A stretch of DNA of 32,000 nucleotides from Candidatus Saccharimonadota bacterium (GTDB lineage Bacteria > Patescibacteriota > Saccharimonadia > Saccharimonadales > Saccharimonadaceae): positions 300,001-332,000 of the forward strand of contig CP064995.1 in the NCBI GenBank assembly GCA_016700015.1, in the 5' to 3' direction. This document shows, in pieces, positions 5,070-29,698 of the stretch. The translations under genes and the position numbers were made by a program. The notes under the pieces were generated by a model. It saw nothing but the letters and a program-made list of their open reading frames with translations. It was not told the origin of the DNA and made no database searches. Positions within the stretch are counted from its first letter, which is position 1; each line of letters opens with the position of its first letter.

Positions 5070-6191
5070 ATGGAAGATCTCAACATTAAACAACTCACTC
5101 TTGCAGTGCGCACCATTGCCGAAGAAAAAAACTTGCCCGAAGAAACTGTGCTCAGCGTTATTGAGCAGGCGATTGCCGCTGCATGGCGTCGCGACAATGG
5201 CGAACGCGACCAAGAAGTTCGCGCTGAGCTCAATATCAACGACGGTACAGCGAAAGTATTTGTTGCTCGAGAAGTTGTAGAAGCTGTCGGTATCGACGCC
5301 CTCGAAATCAGCCTTGACGATGCAAAAAAGCTGAAGAAGGATGCTGCACTTGGCGATACCGTCGAAGAAATGCATGAAGTGACGCAGTTTGGTCGTGTAG
5401 CCGCACAAACTGCTAAACAGGTGGTACTCCAGCGTCTGCGCGAAGCAGAGCGTGAAGTGGTGCTGGCCGAGTTTGAAGACAAGATCGGCACTGTGGTCAA
5501 TGGTGTTGTGCAGCGTGTTGAACCGCGCGTAGTCCGAGTAGAACTGGGCAAGGCAATTGGTATTTTGCCGCAAAGTGAGCAGATCCAGGGTGAATTCTAC
5601 AGTGTGGGTAGCCGCATGAAAGTGTTTATCAAGGACATCGAGCGCGATAACCGTGGGCCACAGCTTATACTGAGCCGCGGCAATGAAGCGTTTGTTGAGT
5701 ACTTATTCCGCCAAGAAGTACCCGAAATGGATACTGGTGCGGTCGAAATCAAGGGCATTGCCCGTGAGGCTGGTCGCCGTACTAAATTGGCTGTAGCCAG
5801 CACCGTACCCGGTGTCGACCCGGTCGGTACCTTTGTTGGTGGTCATGGGACGCGTGTCAACGCTGTCATGCACGAAATCGGTGAGCAGGAAAAAATTGAC
5901 ATCATTACCTACGACGAAAACATCGATAGTTACATTCGTAACGCTTTGAGCCCTGCCGAAGTGGTGAAGGTCGAGATCGACAAAGAAGCGAAGCGCGCTA
6001 AGGTATTTGTGAGCGAAGACCAGCAAAGTATTGCCATTGGCCGTGGCGGCCAAAATGTACGCCTAGCGGCGCGCCTTACTGGCTACGAACTTGACATCGA
6101 AACAGCTGTCGCCGCTAAGCCTGCCGACAAAAAGCCGAAGAAGAATATTGAAGACGGGTTGTTTGCCGCTATTGAAGAACAGGGAGAATAA
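5070..6191 (+). CDS. nusA: transcription termination/antitermination factor NusA
   Basis: Met50 of track ORF 4923..6191. It has the NusA N-terminus (LTLAVRTIAEEKNLPEE), an S1 domain (GTVVNGVVQRVEPRVVRVELG) and two KH motifs (VGGHGTRV, IGRGGQNVRLAARLTG). Confidence 0.93.
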   Translation: MEDLNIKQLTLAVRTIAEEKNLPEETVLSVIEQAIAAAWRRDNGERDQEVRAELNINDGTAKVFVAREVVEAVGIDALEISLDDAKKLKKDAALGDTVEEMHEVTQFGRVAAQTAKQVVLQRLREAEREVVLAEFEDKIGTVVNGVVQRVEPRVVRVELGKAIGILPQSEQIQGEFYSVGSRMKVFIKDIERDNRGPQLILSRGNEAFVEYLFRQEVPEMDTGAVEIKGIAREAGRRTKLAVASTVPGVDPVGTFVGGHGTRVNAVMHEIGEQEKIDIITYDENIDSYIRNALSPAEVVKVEIDKEAKRAKVFVSEDQQSIAIGRGGQNVRLAARLTGYELDIETAVAAKPADKKPKKNIEDGLFAAIEEQGE

Positions 6192-6205
6192 GTACTAACG
6201 AAGAG

Positions 6206-6251
6206 CGCCCCGCACCACCTGGCTCCCGTAGGAGCTGGTAAGTGCGGGGCG
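6206..6251 (-). terminator. long GC-rich hairpin downstream of the cassette-1 ORF
   Basis: CGCCCCGCAC (6206..6215) pairs with GTGCGGGGCG (6242..6251). An inner GCTCC/GGAGC helix lies between them. The hairpin sits 18 nt after the minus-strand stop, followed by only a weak T-rich tail (CTCTTCGTT). Confidence 0.55.
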
Positions 6252-6268
6252 ATCCCCAGAGCGAGAGG

Positions 6269-6556
6269 TCAGGCGGCGGTGTTGAGTCGCACGTAGACCT
6301 CTGCGCCGATTCCGACGTCGTGGAAGGCGTCGGCCTCCCGGGCGGCCGCGGCGAGTCGCTTCTCCGCCTGCTCGAGCTTGTCGAGCAGGGCGTCGACGAC
6401 CTTGTCGCCGCGCCCGGCGTGGGTGGCCCGGGCGACGGCGCTGGCGGCCGCGTCGACGGCGCGCTGGGCGGTCGCGACGTCGGCCTGGAGCTGGTTCCAC
6501 CGGGTCAGGTTGTTCTTGGCCTTGTCGATGGTCGGCATCGAAACGGGGTACGACAT
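6269..6556 (-). CDS. orphan high-GC protein, 95 aa, Ala-rich and predicted helical (cassette 1)
   Basis: Met31 of track ORF 6269..6646, preceded by AAAGAGG-N6. By my count 90 of 95 codons end in G or C. The other frames give Arg-rich or Gly/Val-rich shadow ORFs. Sample line 6361..6420 is 43/60 G+C, against 29/60 for a nusA line. Confidence 0.7.
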   Translation of the reverse strand: MSYPVSMPTIDKAKNNLTRWNQLQADVATAQRAVDAAASAVARATHAGRGDKVVDALLDKLEQAEKRLAAAAREADAFHDVGIGAEVYVRLNTAA

Positions 6557-6617
6557 TGGGTGCCTCTTTCTCTGGGGTGCATACTGCTCGGCAAGTCGCC
6601 TCGCAGCTTCAGTATTC

Positions 6618-6646
6618 ATTATAGCACAACCACAATAAAATGTCAA
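6618..6646 (-). promoter_or_regulatory. perfect TTGACA-N17-TATAAT promoter, with -35 formed at the IS junction
   Basis: On the minus strand, TTGACA is the complement of 6641..6646 and TATAAT the complement of 6618..6623, with a 17-nt spacer. Bases 6643..6646 of the -35 box belong to the IS terminal repeat. Confidence 0.65.
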
Positions 6647-7641
6647 TAGCTACGTAATGGTTCACACCCTTGGCAACAAAAAGCAGGCCTCTCTACACTA
6701 GATAGCGTCAACTAATCTATGTAAGGAGAGCCTGCTATGAGCTATTCTAGCAGCCCCTATGCACCCCGTGCCAGACGAGACGCCGTCAACCGGGTGCTCC
6801 GCGGGGAGACACGAGTGGCAGTAGCGCGTAGTGTGGGTGTCCACCCTTCCACCATTGGTAAGTGGATGTGCAAACGAACAGCACTGCACTTAGATGGTCG
6901 TGAGTGTATCCCTACACTTCCATCCATTGCCCATACCCACCCTAACCAACTACAACCAGAGGTTGTGGCTGCCATTATTCACGAACGCGAACGGAGCGGA
7001 AGATGCGCTGAGCTCGTCTGGTATGAACTGCGCGACCAAGGTATTGCAGTGAGCCTCTCTAGCGTCAAACGGACCTTACGTCGTCATGGTCTCACACGCA
7101 TTCAAAGCAAATGGAAACGGTACCGCCCACCTGTCCCGCGCCCCGAACCAGACACACCAGGCGCGCTTGTGCAGATGGATACCATCCATTTTATGCGACC
7201 AGATATGACGCGCTTCTACGTATTTACCCTCATCGATCTCTATTCCCGAGCGGTATATGCCGAGTATGCTCCTCGCTGCACGCAGCAAGCGAGTCTTGAG
7301 GTTGTTGCAAGGGCACAAGACTATCTCGGAATACCTTTTGCCATAGTACAGACCGACAACGGCGGTGAGTTTGCGGAAGCATTCCGTGCGCAACTCAGCA
7401 TGTGGGGTATTGTGGTGCGACACACTCGGTTGCAGCGCCCTAACGACAATGCGCACATTGAGCGGTTTAACCGCACAATCCAGGACGAATGCCTTTCGCC
7501 ATTCGTCGATGAACAAACCGTACCAGGCAAAGTAGCTTGGTATCTTATCTACTACAACTGGCACCGAAGACATCTTGGCATACATGGCAAGTTACCCGGG
7601 CAGATGTTGCCATGGCGCTGAACCTAGTACGTAGCTATTGA
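6643..7641 (+). mobile_element. IS481-family-like insertion sequence (999 bp)
   Basis: Perfect 14-bp terminal inverted repeats: TCAATAGCTACGTA at 6643..6656 and TACGTAGCTATTGA at 7628..7641. Further imperfect matching extends inward to GGTTC/GAACC. They bracket a single DDE transposase ORF. Confidence 0.85.
6737..7621 (+). CDS. DDE transposase (integrase-core/rve fold, IS481-like single ORF)
   Basis: AAGGAG SD. N-terminal HTH (VAVARSVGVHPSTIGKW). Catalytic triad contexts are VQMDTIHF, VQTDNGGEF and NAHIERFNRTIQDE. Confidence 0.9.
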   Translation: MSYSSSPYAPRARRDAVNRVLRGETRVAVARSVGVHPSTIGKWMCKRTALHLDGRECIPTLPSIAHTHPNQLQPEVVAAIIHERERSGRCAELVWYELRDQGIAVSLSSVKRTLRRHGLTRIQSKWKRYRPPVPRPEPDTPGALVQMDTIHFMRPDMTRFYVFTLIDLYSRAVYAEYAPRCTQQASLEVVARAQDYLGIPFAIVQTDNGGEFAEAFRAQLSMWGIVVRHTRLQRPNDNAHIERFNRTIQDECLSPFVDEQTVPGKVAWYLIYYNWHRRHLGIHGKLPGQMLPWR

Positions 7642-8585: not shown

Positions 8586-11051
8586 ATGCCAGACGATTTT
8601 GCAGATTTTATTTCACATCTTACCGAGAACGCTAAGCTGAGCGTGCAGCACGCTGATGCGATTGCTCGTGGTAATGGCAGTGCGTATATAGGTACAGAAC
8701 ACCTATTGCTTGGATTATTGGCGCAGGGGAGTAGCATGGGCGCAAAAGTATTGGCTGATGCAGGAGTTACGCTGCCGCGCGCTGAGCAGGCTCTAGGGCT
8801 TGAGCCGCAGCAGGTCGTCGTTAGTACGGGTGCGGTAGGGCTAAGTGAGACAGCTCTACTGACACTACGTATGGGGTGGGAAGTCGCGAAAGAGTACAAC
8901 CAAGACTTCTTGGGCACTGAGCATATTCTATATAGTCTGCTTCGACAAAGTAATGCACGCGCCACTACTTTGTTAAGAGAATTAGGAGTGGACGTGGATG
9001 ACGCTATGAGCGAAATTGAGAGCTATCTCGATCGTACGCGCGGCGAACATGGGGATGTTGCAACCGAGCCCAAGCAGCGCACTGTGCGTGGCGGCGCGCT
9101 AACTACATTTGGCATTGACCTAACATCAAAGGCCAGTGCGGGAGAGCTCGACCCGATGATAGGTCGCGCTAAAGAGTTAGAGCGCATGATTACTATTTTG
9201 AGTCGACGTACTAAAAATAACCCAGTATTGATTGGTGAACCTGGCGTCGGAAAAACAGCAATTGTAGAGGGCCTGGCGCAGCGAATCGTGCAAGAGCAGG
9301 TGCCCGATCATTTACTTGACCGTCGTGTGATTATGCTCGATATGGCAGCGATGATCGCCGGAACGAAATATCGTGGTGAGTTTGAAGACAGGCTAAAAAA
9401 AGTTATTAGCGAGATTAAGAAACAAGGTAACATTATCGTATTTATCGATGAGCTCCATTTGCTTGTGGGAGCCGGGGCAGCCGAGGGTAGTATGGACGCC
9501 GCCAATATCCTAAAGCCGGCGCTTGCACGAGGCGAACTGCATATGATCGGCGCTACGACACTTGACGAATATCGTAGGCACATAGAGAAAGATACGGCAT
9601 TAGAGCGTCGTTTCCAAACGATTATCGTTAAGGAACCGACCACGAAAGACACAATTGCTATATTGAAAGGTTTGAAGGTTTACTACGAGAAGCACCATGG
9701 TGTCAGTATGAGTGACGATGTACTCGAAAGTGCTGTCTATATGAGTGATCGCTACATCGCCGATCGGTTTATGCCAGATAAAGCGATTGATGTGATTGAT
9801 GAAGCAGCGGCGAGAGTGCGAGTTCGAGTAGGGCACCGCCCGAGTCGCCAACGTGAGCTCCTGAAAGAACTCAAAGGCCTCAATGAGAGAATGGATGATG
9901 CCGTGGCAAGCGAGGACTACGAGCGAGCAGCGCTCTATAAGCAGCGTGTCAGTCAGATTAATGCCAAGCTAGAGGCTGAGCGAGAAGCGATGGAAAGTAA
10001 GGTGCCAATTGCGCTGACCGAAGATGATATCGCCCATGCAATCGCAATCATGACACACGTGCCGGTCGAGAAGGTGCAAACCAGTGAAGCGCGTTTACTT
10101 AAATCGCTCGAGAAACACCTTGGCAAGTATATTATTGGTCAACAGGAAGCAGTAGAAAGGGTAGCGAAGGCAATTCGTCGTACCAGGAGCGGTATTGCCA
10201 GCCAGAAGCGTCCGATAGGTAGCTTTGTGTTTATGGGACCAACCGGAGTTGGCAAGACTGAGCTCGCGAGAGTGCTTGCACGAGAAGTGTTTGGCAGCGA
10301 CGAGGCACTCATTAAAATCGATATGAGTGAATTTAGCGAACGCCACACCACCAGCCGTTTGGTCGGTGCTCCAGCGGGCTATGTTGGCTACGAAGATGGT
10401 GGTAAGCTTACTGACAAAGTACGTCGTCAGCCTTACAGTGTGGTGTTGTTCGACGAAATTGAAAAAGCTCACCCCGATGTGTTCCAACTACTACTGCAAC
10501 TACTCGAAGACGGTCAACTCACAGACGCAAAAGGCCGGGTGGTGAGTTTTCGCAATACGATCATTATCCTTACCAGTAACCTAGGTGCTGATAAAATGAT
10601 GAGAGAAAGTGCCCTTGGGTTCCAAGCAGATACGTCGAAGAAGCAAGTGAACGACCTACACCAGAGAAACGCTAGCTACGCGCGTGAAGCACTCGACAAA
10701 TTCATGCGACCCGAGCTTATCAATCGCTTTGACGGTATTGTAACCTTCCGTGCTCTGACGCGACAAGAGGTGGGCAAAATATTCGATCTCCTTGTTGGTG
10801 AAATCCGTATGCGCTTAGTGCGCCAAGGGTTGGGGCTCGTAGTAAGGCCACATGCAAAATCCTACCTTATCAACAGGGGCTACAGTGCGAAGTTTGGTGC
10901 TCGCGCGCTGCGTCGTGTTATAGAGGATGAACTAGAGCATCTTATTGCCGAAGGAATCTTAGGCGGAAACTATGAAAAAGGCGCTATACTGGAAGTAAGT
11001 ACGCGGGAAGGGGCACTCTATATTGAACAACGAATCGAAGCAACCACCTAA
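8586..11051 (+). CDS. clpC: ATP-dependent Clp protease ATP-binding subunit ClpC
   Basis: 821 aa with Clp_N repeats ([22 protein letters not shown]), Walker A sites GEPGVGKT and GPTGVGKT, Walker B sites FIDELH and LFDEIEKAH, and a UVR-like linker ([12 protein letters not shown]). Confidence 0.93.
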
Positions 11052-21913: not shown

Positions 21914-21960
21914 AGCCCCCGGTGACCCGGAGGCTGAATGCCTGCGACGGGACGGGGGCT
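21914..21960 (-). terminator. long GC-rich hairpin at the 3' end of the cassette-2 ORF
   Basis: AGCCCCCG (21914..21921) pairs with CGGGGGCT (21953..21960). Inner CCCG/CGGG and GGC/GCC helices lie between them. The hairpin overlaps the stop codon and is followed on the minus strand by GTTTGCTT. Confidence 0.5.
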
Positions 21961-22219
21961 AGTAGGTGCCGACCTTTACGGTCGTTCCGACGTACATGTA
22001 GAAGTCGGAAAAACGGAACGCGATTGTCGTCCCACCCCTGGTCTTGATTTCGAAGACCACGTGGTTGGCGGGGTTCGCGTTTGTGAGCTTGTAGAGTTCA
22101 TTTTCGAACTCGCGGACGACATCTCGCGGGACGGCGAGCGCATGGTCGGTCAGCTGCGCTTCGCGGTACCCGTGAAACTTTACGGTTGCGCCGTTCAGGA
22201 GATGGGTGAACTCGGGCAT
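21959..22219 (-). CDS. orphan GC-elevated protein, 86 aa, beta-rich (cassette 2)
   Basis: Met8 of track ORF 21959..22240, preceded by AAAGGAG-N5. Sample line 22021..22080 is 36/60 G+C and third codon positions are G/C-biased. No recognised motif (MPEFTHLLNGATVKFHGYREAQ...). Confidence 0.65.
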   Translation of the reverse strand: MPEFTHLLNGATVKFHGYREAQLTDHALAVPRDVVREFENELYKLTNANPANHVVFEIKTRGGTTIAFRFSDFYMYVGTTVKVGTY

Positions 22220-22271
22220 GGGTGCTCCTTTAGTGGTCAAGGTGCGTAGTGGTGAAACTATTCTGAATTAT

Positions 22272-22300
22272 ATTATATCAAAATACAGCGTATTTGTCAA
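22272..22300 (-). promoter_or_regulatory. perfect TTGACA-N17-TATAAT promoter
   Basis: On the minus strand, TTGACA is the complement of 22295..22300 and TATAAT the complement of 22272..22277, with a 17-nt spacer. It sits in an AT-rich divergent promoter region. Confidence 0.65.
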
Positions 22301-26436: not shown

Positions 26437-26898
26437 ATGTCAAGAAGTGTTGCGGAAGTTACAGGTAAAATGCCATTCGCTGGAAAGTATATAGTTAAAT
26501 ATTTGTATCAAAAGGGTCGTGAAGCCTCTAGAAACGGTGAGTATACAGGTAAAATTACGAGTGCAACTGCTTTAGGTGCGCTTGCCGTCTTACACGCCGT
26601 GCAGCTTAAAATGGGAATAAGAGAGCTTGTATATGACGGCGGACAAAACCCCGCACTCGTTGGGGTTGATGCACTTTACACAGCTGCGAATGCCATGGTT
26701 ACATACACGCAAGCCTATTTAGCCGCTAAAGTCGTTGCGACAGCGAAAGAGCCTGCGATGGTCACCCCTGAGGGTGTGACATCTCACGATGTCGACCAAG
26801 ATAATAACCGACCAAATATCAAGTTAGGCGTTCCAAGCCCAATGGACTTTATCGTAACTGCGGGTGGTCAAGCTATCTTTCTTGCGACGCTGCACTAG
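26437..26898 (+). CDS. hypothetical protein (153 aa), lower GC than its surroundings by eye
   Basis: ORF with a strong leaderless-type promoter. Ala-rich amphipathic or hydrophobic segments. No recognised motif. Confidence 0.65.
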   Translation: MSRSVAEVTGKMPFAGKYIVKYLYQKGREASRNGEYTGKITSATALGALAVLHAVQLKMGIRELVYDGGQNPALVGVDALYTAANAMVTYTQAYLAAKVVATAKEPAMVTPEGVTSHDVDQDNNRPNIKLGVPSPMDFIVTAGGQAIFLATLH

Positions 26899-27093: not shown

Positions 27094-27180
27094 TGGTGCG
27101 GATAAGAGGACTTGAACCTCCACGTACTTGCGTACACTAGCACCTGAAGCTAGCGCGTCTACCAATTCCGCCATATCCGC
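27094..27180 (-). tRNA. tRNA-Leu (anticodon CAG), CCA encoded
   Basis: Manual cloverleaf: acceptor GCGGATA/TATCCGC; anticodon arm CTAGC-TTCAGGT-GCTAG; variable arm TGTACGCAAGTACGT; T arm GGAGG-TTCAAGT-CCTCT; then ACCA. Confidence 0.9.
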
Positions 27181-27227
27181 ATATGTATAACACCTAAAGA
27201 GCGCGTGAATTTTTAGGGCTTGCGGCG

Positions 27228-27358
27228 CTAGCTTCTGAAGCTAGGTCACGTTCCGCGACCCCGCGAGCCAGCCTATCGAGCATAGCTCTCTGGTGACATC
27301 GCCTTGCGAACTGCCGACTGACAGTTCTCACGTCTACCAATTCCGCCATATCCGCATA
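27228..27358 (-). pseudogene. scrambled partial copy of tRNA-Leu(CAG) (5' 25 nt + anticodon-arm-like palindrome, no T arm)
   Basis: 27331..27358 is identical to 27156..27183 (28 nt: tRNA positions 1-25 plus 3 upstream nt). 27228..27244 (CTAGCTTCAGAAGCTAG in tRNA sense) matches the anticodon arm except at two loop bases. About 85 nt of unrelated GC-richer sequence lies between the two pieces. Confidence 0.7.
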
Positions 27359-27518
27359 GATAAAGGACACTACTTAACGCGATATTCCTACGCATTATAC
27401 AACGCGCAGCGCGTCTACGACTATTTACGTTTCGCGCAGCCGTCATAGCTGCATACCAAACTATCATAGCAAATACCAGAGGTGGTGGCAAGAATAGCAA
27501 AAAACTTACACAAACATA

Positions 27519-27547
27519 TTGACAAAAAACACAGCTTGTGCTATAAT
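27519..27547 (+). promoter_or_regulatory. perfect TTGACA-N17-TATAAT promoter (TGc-extended)
   Basis: TTGACA at 27519..27524 and TATAAT at 27542..27547, with a 17-nt spacer. It shares the 15-mer TTGTGCTATAATGAA with the cassette-1 promoter. Confidence 0.7.
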
Positions 27548-27652
27548 GAAATTATGCAGTCAGGAGTGGGGCACCCGCCCCGCCGAAGACCGCACCTGAA
27601 TAATCCATCGCTACACAACCCGCCCCCCCGGTGGGGCAGAGAGAGGTTCATC

Positions 27653-28318
27653 ATGAACCGTACCGCCAACTTCGTCGGGCTCAACAAGGCCGCCAAGGAC
27701 GCCGCCATCAAGGAGGCCGTCGCCAAGGCCGAGGCCGGCTTCGCCGGCCGTCTGGCCTTCGAGGCCAGCACCAGGGCCAACCGCGCCCTCGTCGCCGACC
27801 AGGCCAAGCGGTCGTCCGCGCTGCGGACGATCCACGCCGGCCCGGCCCGGGCGCTGGTCGAGAAGGCCCTGGCGTTCTACGCCGAGGCGCCGCTGGCCGA
27901 ACGTGGTGAGGTCTCGACGACCATCGTCGTGACCGACCCGGTGACGCGCAAGCGTCACGCCGTCCCGGTGCAGCTCCCCCAGCTCATCACCGTCGACCCA
28001 CGCGAGTGGGCCCGCATGGAGGCGCTCGCTGCCCTCCAGGGGACGCCCGGCCTGGACGCCAAGGCGGTCGATTTCGCGCGCGGGCGGTTCGCCCGGGCGC
28101 TCGACCGCGGTGTCGAGCGGCTTGCGCTGCTCAACGGCGGCGTCGAGGTCCCCGACAAGGACCCGCTGCCCGAGCGCAAGCCGAAGGCCCAGGATGCCGC
28201 GCCGGTCGACAAGCCGGCCGAGCCCGCGAGCGACAAGGACTTCGACGCCAAGGTGGCGAAGTTCCTGAAGGAATCTCCGCAGCCGCGGAGCAAGCGGGCA
28301 GCCGCCCGCGCCTCCTGA
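27653..28318 (+). CDS. orphan high-GC protein, 221 aa, Ala-rich with Lys/Pro/Asp-rich tail (cassette 3)
   Basis: Met58 of track ORF 27482..28318, preceded by GAGAGG-N6. From this codon onward almost every codon ends in G/C. Sample line 27721..27780 is 45/60 G+C. An in-frame ATG at 27554 lies 6 nt after the -10 box and is an alternative leaderless start. Confidence 0.75.
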   Translation: MNRTANFVGLNKAAKDAAIKEAVAKAEAGFAGRLAFEASTRANRALVADQAKRSSALRTIHAGPARALVEKALAFYAEAPLAERGEVSTTIVVTDPVTRKRHAVPVQLPQLITVDPREWARMEALAALQGTPGLDAKAVDFARGRFARALDRGVERLALLNGGVEVPDKDPLPERKPKAQDAAPVDKPAEPASDKDFDAKVAKFLKESPQPRSKRAAARAS

Positions 28319-28325
28319 TCCCTCC

Positions 28326-28439
28326 TCTCACCTGAGCCCTTCGGGGCAAAGGTGAGATACAAGTAGCGGTGGAATCCCGGGGCGGCGACGAGTTAGTATG
28401 AGGTACCCAGTCCTCAGCAAACACCGTCGTCGCCCTGGG
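28326..28439 (+). other. two stable GC-rich hairpins in the cassette-3 3' region (possible structured RNA or imported terminators)
   Basis: Hairpin 1 (28326..28357): TCTCACCT/AGGTGAGA enclosing GCCC-TTCG-GGGC. Hairpin 2: a 15-bp stem, CCCGGGGCGGCGACG (28376..28390) with CGTCGTCGCCCTGGG (28425..28439), two G-U pairs, and an apical TGAGG/CCTCA helix. Confidence 0.5.
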
Positions 28440-28462
28440 TAACACCCATCTTCCCGACAGTT

Positions 28463-28485
28463 CACCCCAGCAAGGGGTGTTTTTA
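28463..28485 (+). terminator. rho-independent terminator
   Basis: CACCCC-AGCAA-GGGGTG followed by TTTTTATTT. Confidence 0.75.
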
Positions 28486-28507
28486 TTTGCTATAATAGCC
28501 TATACCA

Positions 28508-29125
28508 ATGGCACACTTTTACCTAGTACGGCACGCTGAATCGGTTGCCAACACGCACCCCGAACGTGTGGGAGGTCGCTCGAATCACTCGCCACTAACC
28601 GAGCGCGGCAAAGCGCAGGCCAGGCAGCTCGGTAAATTTGTGCGCGAATACGACATTCAGTACGACAGAGTACTTAGTTCACCAGCAAAACGGACGCTTG
28701 CAACCGCAAAGTATGCCTTCAACCGCACGGGACGCGACATTATTGTGCTTAACAAACTACAAGAAATATCACAAGGTATCGCCGAAGGCATGCCGCGAGT
28801 TGAAGTCTACACCCCTGAGGTACTAGCAATGATCGAGAAAAAGGGGCGCGACTTTGCTATGCCAGGCGGCGAATCGACCCGACAAGTGGGAGCGCGTATG
28901 CTGAAGTGTTTGTCGCGGGTTGCCGACTGGGCGAGTGACGAAGTGCCGCATATGGTAGTGACCCACGGTACGGCAATCAAAAGCTTGGTGGCCGAGCTCG
29001 AGGACCGCTCGCAGCAGTGGATATATGCGGCTCCCATGCCAAATGCTTCGCTGACACACGTGGAAATACGCGGACTAGAGGGCGTAGTACATGACTACGC
29101 ACGGGACACGCAGCGCGATGACTGA
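28508..29125 (+). CDS. histidine phosphatase family protein (phosphoglycerate mutase-like)
   Basis: N-terminal catalytic motif (YLVRHAESVAN) and a later VVTHG segment. TGcTATAAT at 28488..28496 lies 11 nt upstream of the ATG and there is no SD. Confidence 0.85.
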   Translation: MAHFYLVRHAESVANTHPERVGGRSNHSPLTERGKAQARQLGKFVREYDIQYDRVLSSPAKRTLATAKYAFNRTGRDIIVLNKLQEISQGIAEGMPRVEVYTPEVLAMIEKKGRDFAMPGGESTRQVGARMLKCLSRVADWASDEVPHMVVTHGTAIKSLVAELEDRSQQWIYAAPMPNASLTHVEIRGLEGVVHDYARDTQRDD

Positions 29126-29651: not shown

Positions 29652-29698
29652 CTTTATATATGCCTATGCTTGCAACAAAAGCAAAATAGTGAGACAAT

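Follow-up and report, generated by a model that had tools for sequence, protein, structure and literature searches.

Does a gene whose base composition is foreign to its genome mark a recent import, or can such a composition be kept up where the gene stands? The question is raised by cassette 3, a promoter-driven unit encoding a 221-amino-acid (aa) protein in a Candidatus Saccharibacteria genome, of which we analyzed a 32-kb window (the whole stretch of DNA studied; mean G+C content, or GC, 50.4%). Saccharimonadia are epibionts of high-GC Actinomycetota, and the initial annotation of the window had described the open reading frame (ORF) of cassette 3 as a very high-GC orphan. With moderate confidence we read cassette 3 as one allele of a conserved, hypervariable expression slot of environmental Saccharimonadia, which would encode a host-interaction protein between stabilizing untranslated regions (UTRs). 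The pattern of codon usage, together with the swapping of ORFs, points to a gene that evolves fast and takes part in host interaction, and not to a stray one imported of late.

Cassette 3 is an autonomous unit, with promoter, structured leader, ORF, structured 3' UTR and terminator, lying in an accessory gap. Its parts are given here by position and strand; L001 (a Logan contig) and L089 are loci of relatives, and A and B are protein families described below.

27519 to 27547 (+): consensus sigma-70 promoter, TTGACA, a 17-nt spacer with a TGn extended -10, and TATAAT (exact pattern match)
27555 to 27594 (+): 5'-terminal leader hairpin, with a GUGGGGC/GCCCCGC core inside AUGCAGUC.../...GACCGCA (minimum-free-energy and centroid fold)
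27619 to 27635 (+): leader hairpin proximal to the Shine-Dalgarno (SD) sequence, CCCGCC/GGUGGG (fold)
27641 to 27646 (+): SD sequence GAGAGG (read from the sequence)
27653 to 28318 (+): ORF, 221 aa
27653 to 27670 (+): first six codons, MNRTAN, common to the family B allele of L001 (alignment of the window with L001)
27671 to 28186 (+): exchangeable ORF core, the family A domain, residues ~7-178, without DNA similarity to L001 or L089
28187 to 28318 (+): C-terminal tail module, ~44 codons ending ...SKRAAARAS plus the stop codon, common to the family B allele
28326 to 28357 (+): 3' UTR hairpin 1 (fold)
28368 to 28446 (+): conserved 3' RNA element, consisting of P1 (GGUG/CACC), an internal loop (GAAU/UAA) and a 15-bp P2 at 28376-28439 (covariance model R1)
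28463 to 28484 (+): intrinsic terminator, CACCCC-AGCAA-GGGGUG then UUUUU, kept in L001 and L089

Most of what the initial annotation had read from the sequence held up. The promoter is an exact match, including its extended -10, and such perfect matches occur three times in the 32 kb versus none in dinucleotide shuffles. The G and C runs of the leader lie where they had been placed (27568-71, 27574-84, 27619-29 and 27630-36), as does the GAGAGG SD, and the ORF, which starts with the ATG at 27653, has a GC of 0.728 and a GC at third codon positions (GC3) of 0.928, compared with a GC3 of 0.40-0.58 in neighbouring genes. The basic, Pro/Lys/Asp-rich tail (residues ~165-221) is mostly disordered by prediction, and the accessory gap does hold a tRNA-Leu(CAG), tRNA debris and an orphan gene of lower GC. 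At the 3' end a GC-rich hairpin with a U-run closes the cassette, as expected of an intrinsic terminator. Cassette 3 had also been called the largest and most GC-extreme of the cassettes in the window; it is the largest, but cassette 1 equals it in composition (GC3 0.95). The 221-aa product is identical to the NCBI entry "hypothetical protein IPM09_01795" (longest contig 1,011,181 bp), and the flanks are genes for an FAD oxidase, tRNA-Leu, a histidine phosphatase (His_Phos_1), a SpoU methylase and HisRS. An assembly chimera was ruled out, the identical protein having been found with the same flanks on at least seven contigs from independent samples in addition to the 1.01-Mb NCBI contig.

We define "slot" as the position occupied by cassette 3, with tRNA-Leu(CAG) on one side and the histidine phosphatase, SpoU and HisRS genes on the other. 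The same slot, promoter, leader and 3' hairpin build recur in at least eight independent genomes belonging to several genera of environmental Saccharimonadia. The promoter of cassette 3 is identical in L001 and has near-identical copies at the same place in L002, L007, L088 and L089. Loci were collected with scans anchored on SpoU, which succeeded, while peptide-pattern scans for family A in GTDB genomes and for His_Phos_1 in JGI metagenomes were empty. "Orphan" therefore describes the gene in part: it does lie in an accessory gap, but it is not a lone high-GC gene, because homologues occupy the same syntenic position in other genera.

The ORF in the slot is exchangeable. We compared the window with L001 at both the DNA and the protein level; the two flanks are 98.7% and 97.6% identical, and L001 keeps the promoter, the leader, the first six codons, the last ~44 codons, the 3' UTR and the terminator of the window. 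Its ORF core (P0002) is nonetheless unrelated to that of the window, though ~98% identity prevails in the flanks, and it too has a GC3 of 0.93. The parts of the cassette common to the two are 8% diverged compared with 1-2% in the flanks, a difference which suggests that the whole cassette may have come in by homologous recombination from a more distant relative. The window tail and the P0002 tail share 88% aa identity, and the tail with the 3' UTR (28187-28490) shares 92% DNA identity, while the tail module is absent from family A members of other genera. Because its A core is joined to a tail shared with the family B allele of L001 but missing from family A members of other genera, the window gene is, as judged from these alignments, itself recombinant, its core being of type A and its tail of type B. 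The recombination junctions between the window and L001 fall inside the ORF.

The slot accommodates several protein families. Three family A relatives (P0003, P0004 and P0006) are ~33-42% identical to the window protein, and each comes from a different Saccharimonadia genome. Their genes stand directly upstream of His_Phos_1 or of SpoU and HisRS (in L002 and L007 also downstream of tRNA-Leu), in cassettes whose promoter is close to consensus, whose leader forms hairpins and whose 3' end carries a long hairpin. Family B, which is not detectably related to family A (hhalign probability 9%), comprises nine clusters; the context is known for seven, and all seven are in the slot. Indeed, every member of either family for which a context could be read lies there. 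Further families were found in the slot in L020/L123, L083, L124, L125 and L135. Most proteins of families A and B open with the motif M(x)N(R/K/T)T, in the longer form M(x)N(R/K/T)T(P)xxVG, and are otherwise unrelated between the families; this shared N-terminus could be a targeting signal, a constraint on translation initiation or the footprint of a recombination junction.

In L009 and L100 the slot holds no ORF. What is present there (L009 3990-4300; L100 ~2235-2312) is a promoter, ~250 nt of structured RNA (z = -3.8) that includes the conserved 3' element, and a terminator, so the ORF-less slot is either a deleted cassette or an RNA shell with a function of its own. In relatives the gap between SpoU and HisRS is a second cassette slot (L002 7919-8960; L088 1815-2417; L091 2355-4241), occupied by families C and D. 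L091 has as many as three cassettes there, while the corresponding gap of the window is a 47-bp spacer that holds none (29652-29698). L089, a close relative, has one more cassette with a promoter of its own, placed after the tRNA and before the slot (9424-9800) and encoding a hydrophobic, probably membrane protein of 100 aa with a GC3 of 0.79.

The 3' UTR carries a conserved RNA structure that follows the slot rather than the ORF. The initial annotation had noted three hairpins in the ~165 nt past the ORF, and folding bears this out: the 165 nt after the stop codon form three hairpins with a free energy of -83 kcal/mol (z = -7.0 relative to shuffles). Compensatory changes separate the window from L001 in hairpins 1 and 2; that in hairpin 1 is a U-A to C-G change, and equivalents of this hairpin are present in L089, L013 and L094. 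A covariance model of the 3' element (R1) scored 85.6 bits at the window (E = 1e-19) and gave 12 plus-strand matches in 12 loci (E <= 1.5e-8), all in the slot upstream of His_Phos_1 or SpoU, with three further matches in metagenome loci and none in 683 kb of viral DNA. The base of P2 is CCCGGGG/CCCUGGG and its distal part is variable. In 11 of the 15 P2 pairs both partners vary, and pairing is kept in 89% of cells (slid controls, ~50%); none of 500 shuffles reached the observed values. These figures were obtained after realigning the element sequences to the covariance model, MAFFT alignments having been out of register for four of 11. Because the element is present with different ORF families and in the empty slot, we assign it to the conserved shell.

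No Rfam family (Rfam 15) matched the 3' element. A hand-written hairpin descriptor proved too unspecific (13 matches versus 3-7 in shuffles) and was replaced by the covariance model; a short pattern of the element gave only chance matches in IMG/VR, among which the model found none. The fourth pair of P2 is a wobble, G.U in seven of 12 sequences, U.G in two and A.C in L002, and the junction of P1 and P2 keeps an internal loop of GAA/UAA type. These features suggest recognition by a specific factor.

The high GC of the cassette ORFs is a maintained property and not the trace of a recent import. The initial annotation had counted the gene as accessory, and had named relatives with the same gene at native GC in the core genome as evidence that would speak against its claim; relatives do carry the gene, yet their homologues, in other genera, have a GC3 of 0.83-0.96 (range within families, 0.8-0.97), which is why we regard the composition as maintained. 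Among the window, L002 and L007, HisRS is 72-75% and SpoU 65-69% identical, but family A proteins are only 32-43% identical among themselves. At four-fold degenerate sites under conserved residues in families A and B, third-position identity was within 0.06 of the expectation from composition in nine of 12 pairs and 0.08-0.13 above it in the other three, indicating that synonymous sites are saturated or nearly so. The GC of four-fold sites is 0.80-0.95 in these families compared with 0.53-0.80 in flanking core genes. The relic of a single ancient import would have decayed over such divergence; the high GC has therefore been kept up.

These observations bear directly on the view that the ORF was acquired horizontally, recently or more than once, from an actinobacterial host, plasmid or actinophage of high GC, that its composition has still to drift to that of the resident genome, and that its promoter was added or recruited locally. 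Composition lends that view some support, L088 having GC values of 0.72/0.51/0.91 at the three codon positions, which we take to match genes of a genome of ~70% GC. Integration scars mark the tRNA beside the site, where relatives have an island with a serine recombinase, and small phage genes are often orphans. Gene transfer between Saccharimonadia and Actinomycetota has been reported (bioRxiv 10.64898/2026.09.16.751625). As in a transferred islet, then, an atypical composition stands beside a tRNA and its scars, but homologues in a donor lineage were not found, and in relatives the gene is neither absent nor ameliorated. The same families recur in the same slot of different genera with saturated synonymous sites, and junctions inside the ORF need homology arms of Saccharimonadia type, in transcripts whose UTRs carry a Saccharimonadia-specific RNA element. 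Repeated import from outside is disfavoured because donors that left no trace would have to strike the same slot each time with arms that only Saccharimonadia possess, and we consider import improbable.

The search for such donors was broad. Among 15 billion proteins no homologue of family A or B was found outside Saccharimonadia; blastn and tblastn searches of 50,697 phage genomes were negative, and two scans of IMG/VR viral proteins recovered no member of either family. An exhaustive HMMER search of 1.84 billion representatives gave five matches, namely the query, three slot homologues and one repetitive protein that is probably spurious. From these sequence searches, families A and B look lineage-specific and confined to Saccharimonadia.

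Composition changes at the boundaries of the ORF, which argues against a regional cause. At a recombination hot spot, GC-biased gene conversion or a mutational bias of the locality could raise GC even if codons were not under selection; recombination at the slot is clearly shown, Saccharibacteria are reportedly naturally competent, and GC3 is slightly raised in His_Phos_1 and SpoU (0.58 versus ~0.48). Such a process is disfavoured because unconstrained non-coding positions are not enriched in GC: across 30 cassettes the leaders and 3' UTRs have a GC of 0.54 and the promoter segments 0.26, compared with 0.8-0.95 at the four-fold sites of the same transcripts, and the boundaries in composition coincide with the ORF. 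The 30 cassettes have GC of 0.66/0.48/0.88 at first, second and third codon positions, and core genes 0.61/0.41/0.51. A GC3 shift of 0.37 is far above the effects reported for gene conversion in bacteria, and we hold this explanation to be very improbable.

Codon choice in the cassettes is of actinobacterial type and opposite to that of three resident genes. Cassette ORFs use GCC (59%), GTC (66%), ACC (60%), CCG (50%), CCC (42%), TCC (31%), ATC (93%), AAG (98%), TTC (97%) and CGG (22%). The genes tig, clpP and rpoB, which we take to be highly expressed in the resident genome, use CGT (39%), GGT (42%) and CCA (40%), with little TCC (2%), CCC (7%) or CGG (3%). The possibility that the cassettes are the extreme of the genome's own translational selection was rejected on these grounds, since tig, clpP and rpoB favour CGT, GGT and CCA and shun TCC, CCC and CGG. 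The best explanation we can offer, held with the same middling confidence as our reading as a whole, is that the high-GC codon usage is maintained by selection on codon choice and is not left over from a recent transfer; this conclusion, like those on exchange, is drawn from sequence comparison.

One candidate for the source of such selection is the host. The ORFs may keep host codons because they are decoded by host translation resources, either after mRNA or DNA has entered the actinobacterial cell or because imported host tRNAs gate translation during feeding; on this view the 3' hairpin would serve to signal handling or transfer, and RNA-targeting CRISPR (clustered regularly interspaced short palindromic repeats) spacers of the host a counter-measure. 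Taken together, these propositions seem to us rather unlikely. They would account for a codon usage of actinobacterial type, opposite to that of the three resident genes, kept past synonymous saturation and confined to the ORF, and for mRNA ends that look strongly protected. Uptake of host RNA by Patescibacteria has been reported, as has a codon usage complementary to that of GC-rich hosts (bioRxiv 10.64898/2026.06.21.733656); CRISPR spacers of Actinomycetota match Saccharimonadia ORFs of unknown function, and metagenome-assembled genomes of Ca. Phosphoribacter with such spacers encode an RNA-targeting type III-E system (bioRxiv 10.64898/2026.09.16.751625). The published protospacers, however, lie in multi-copy regions of another genus and are not shown to be cassettes of this kind, whereas the window contains one copy of cassette 3. 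Its promoter and SD are of the usual bacterial kind and function in the parasite itself, and we know of no route by which Saccharibacteria export RNA or DNA to a host.

The association of perfect promoters with high-GC3 ORFs extends beyond the slot. Among 87 Saccharibacteria loci and the window, 15 of 17 units consisting of a perfect promoter, an SD and an ORF reached a GC3 of 0.75 or more; another 80 loci, from metagenomes, added six of eight, for a total of 21 of 25. The high-GC3 ORFs with perfect promoters are found in environmental genomes of Saccharimonas type, and none was seen in oral Nanosynbacter loci. In the window itself, cassettes at 6188-6650 (-) and 21938-22300 (-), each between genes of native GC, have a perfect promoter, a short leader, an SD and a terminator-like hairpin. 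They encode proteins of 95 aa (GC3 0.95) and 86 aa (GC3 0.78), which had no protein-family match and no homologue among the fetched loci.

The leader fits better the role of a 5' stabilizer and translation-initiation region than that of a switch. It is ~99 nt long, as measured from an inferred rather than mapped transcription start site (TSS). Each of the 16 cassette leaders folded has a hairpin that starts only a few nt from this site, and in most of the slot leaders folded another stands just 5' of the SD, although the sequences differ. Leaders of other genera share this architecture, followed by a purine-rich SD, but no common sequence core. In the window the last two G of the SD, with UUCA, pair with UGAACC to form a mini-hairpin (GGUUCA/UGAACC, 27645-27659) that spans the AUG and is kept in L001.

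The initial annotation had speculated that the SD could be masked or freed as the G and C runs pair in alternative ways. Runs that complement each other do exist, and the mini-hairpin covers the 3' end of the SD and the AUG. The energetics are unfavourable to the idea, however: in stability the leader exceeds shuffles by a narrow margin (z = -1.9), the alternative pairings lie 9-20 kcal/mol higher when enforced, and a fold in which the SD must pair loses 4.5 kcal/mol. In the ensemble the six SD bases have unpaired probabilities of 0.65, 0.88, 0.59, 0.79, 0.0 and 0.0, so that the first four are for the most part free. The leader had no Rfam match at gathering score or at E <= 5, and neither an aptamer nor a conserved sequence core, nor two exclusive folds of similar energy, one of them sequestering the SD, as a riboswitch leader would possess, were found. 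A riboregulatory leader is accordingly a most improbable account. Right after the stop codon, CCUCCUCUC (28321-28330) complements the SD region AGAGAGAGG (27638-27646). The complementarity is kept in L001, takes a variant form in L089 and is not present in distant relatives; it may be a 5'-3' interaction or chance.

An AlphaFold model of the protein, built from a four-sequence alignment, has a mean predicted local distance difference test score (pLDDT) of 79, with block means of ~84-96 over residues 11-160. The predicted fold opens at the N-terminus with a helix of 40 residues, after which come another helix, a long beta-hairpin and a further two helices. The basic tail is modelled as mostly disordered, with low pLDDT and a short helix at residues 195-207.

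We propose the following working model for the slot. A fixed shell, made up of an AT-rich consensus promoter, a two-hairpin leader, a strong SD, the covarying 3' hairpin element and the intrinsic terminator, surrounds an exchangeable ORF, which is of family A in the window, of the unrelated family B in L001, of others elsewhere and lacking in L009. To judge from the junction pattern, exchange most likely proceeds by homologous recombination with DNA from other Saccharimonadia. The promoter would drive high transcription, and the 5' and 3' stem-loops would protect the monocistronic mRNA from exonucleases, so that the product, a predicted helical domain of 160 residues with a disordered basic tail, would be made abundantly. 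It would act in host interaction, under diversifying pressure.

Several points weigh against this reading. Nothing matches the cassette 3 protein in family, fold or motif: searches of Pfam, PHROGs, NCBIfam and PADLOC were empty for it, for cassettes 1 and 2 and for representatives of families B, C and D, a profile search of PDB sequences returned nothing for it, and Foldseek searches of PDB and BFVD gave nothing below E = 0.01. The protein lacks a signal peptide and is linked to no secretion system, and what suggests a role in host interaction is its hypervariability, its orphan status and its context. High transcription and a stable mRNA are, likewise, predictions from the sequence. The label "actinobacterial-type" refers to the codon usage typical of high-GC Actinobacteria, rather than to an actinobacterial reference set. 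The slot was detected in a subset of environmental genomes only, and its age is uncertain. Homology searches can, moreover, miss distant donors of small, fast-evolving proteins of biased composition.

Other features surround cassette 3. The tRNA-Leu(CAG) lies upstream of the cassette at 27094-27180 (-), and a degenerate second copy at ~27200-27360 (-) has a recognizable 5' end and anticodon arm and an insertion of ~85 nt; short-read contigs with cassette 3 tend to break at this copy. The relatives that carry a large serine recombinase island at tRNA-Leu are L089 and L009. The orphan ORF of 153 aa at 26437-26898 (+) has a native GC of 0.47 and a -10-like TATAAT just upstream, is kept in L001 and L097, and had no match in Pfam, PHROGs, NCBIfam or PADLOC. 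On the other side, the histidine phosphatase gene starts with the ATG at 28508, and a TATAAT at 28482-28487 directly follows the U-run of the cassette terminator; it appears to serve this gene, whose leader would be ~15 nt long and lack an SD.

Patescibacteria, including Saccharibacteria, are abundant epibiotic parasites whose host-manipulation genes are, to our knowledge, almost unknown. The locus defines a recognizable class of genes, with a consensus promoter, hairpinned UTRs, a small orphan ORF and host-like codon usage; it is hypervariable from strain to strain, while as a slot it is conserved from one genus to the next. The view of a lone recent import is thus replaced by one of a conserved hypervariable slot with maintained host-like codon usage. 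If that usage is selected, it would be a rare case of a subset of genes held at a foreign codon equilibrium, and would bear on proposals of RNA exchange and complementary codon usage between parasite and host. We found no description of such cassettes or of the 3' element in the literature searched, and the latter adds a candidate structured RNA absent from Rfam. A screen for perfect promoters followed by ORFs with a GC3 of at least 0.75 would yield candidate effectors in Saccharimonadia of wastewater and soil.

Cassette 3 resembles several known systems in part. Like a phage moron it is monocistronic, with its own promoter (27519-27547) and terminator (28463-28484) between unrelated genes, has a composition unlike its neighbours (GC3 0.93 versus 0.40-0.58), and varies in presence or content among close relatives. 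Unlike a moron, it is flanked by chromosomal housekeeping genes and not by a prophage, has no phage similarity, and occupies a fixed slot conserved across genera, where its atypical composition has been maintained over long divergence and does not stem from recent origin. Integron gene cassettes, too, are small ORFs that are exchanged at a fixed genomic position and have an imperfect hairpin after each. Each slot cassette, however, has its own consensus promoter in place of a shared Pc, and the hairpin flanks, which read GGUGGAAU...UAACACC with a stem base of CCCGGGG/CCCUGGG, contain no attC cores seen on inspection. No integrase was identified in the window, whose ORFs were not all scanned, the serine recombinase of relatives is of a different class from the IntI tyrosine recombinase, and exchange junctions inside the ORF point to homologous and not site-specific recombination. 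A diversity-generating retroelement target was also considered and rejected on two counts: the cassette sequence is not repeated in the window, as it would be in a template/variable repeat pair, and the alleles differ wholesale, not at adenine-templated sites.

Other parallels are found in hypervariable loci that recombine homologously through conserved flanks, such as the capsule and O-antigen loci and the effector or immunity islands of naturally transformable bacteria. There, too, strains that are almost identical carry non-homologous alleles inside those flanks, and the tracts brought in have diverged further than the flanks have. The slot differs from these in being a single small ORF within a conserved regulatory shell, all of whose alleles have a codon usage foreign to the genome. 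If the ORFs were decoded by the host, and only then, they would resemble Agrobacterium T-DNA (transferred DNA) genes as parasite-borne genes with host-matched expression features; T-DNA, however, has host-type promoters and transfer machinery, whereas the slot ORFs are host-like only in codon usage. In its RNA the cassette resembles 5' stabilizers of the ompA-leader type combined with 3' stem-loop protection, having a hairpin at the 5' end, another adjacent to the SD and stable 3' hairpins before the terminator. Unlike generic 3' stem-loops, the 3' element of the slot has a P1 helix, a GAA/UAA loop and a G.U at the fourth pair.

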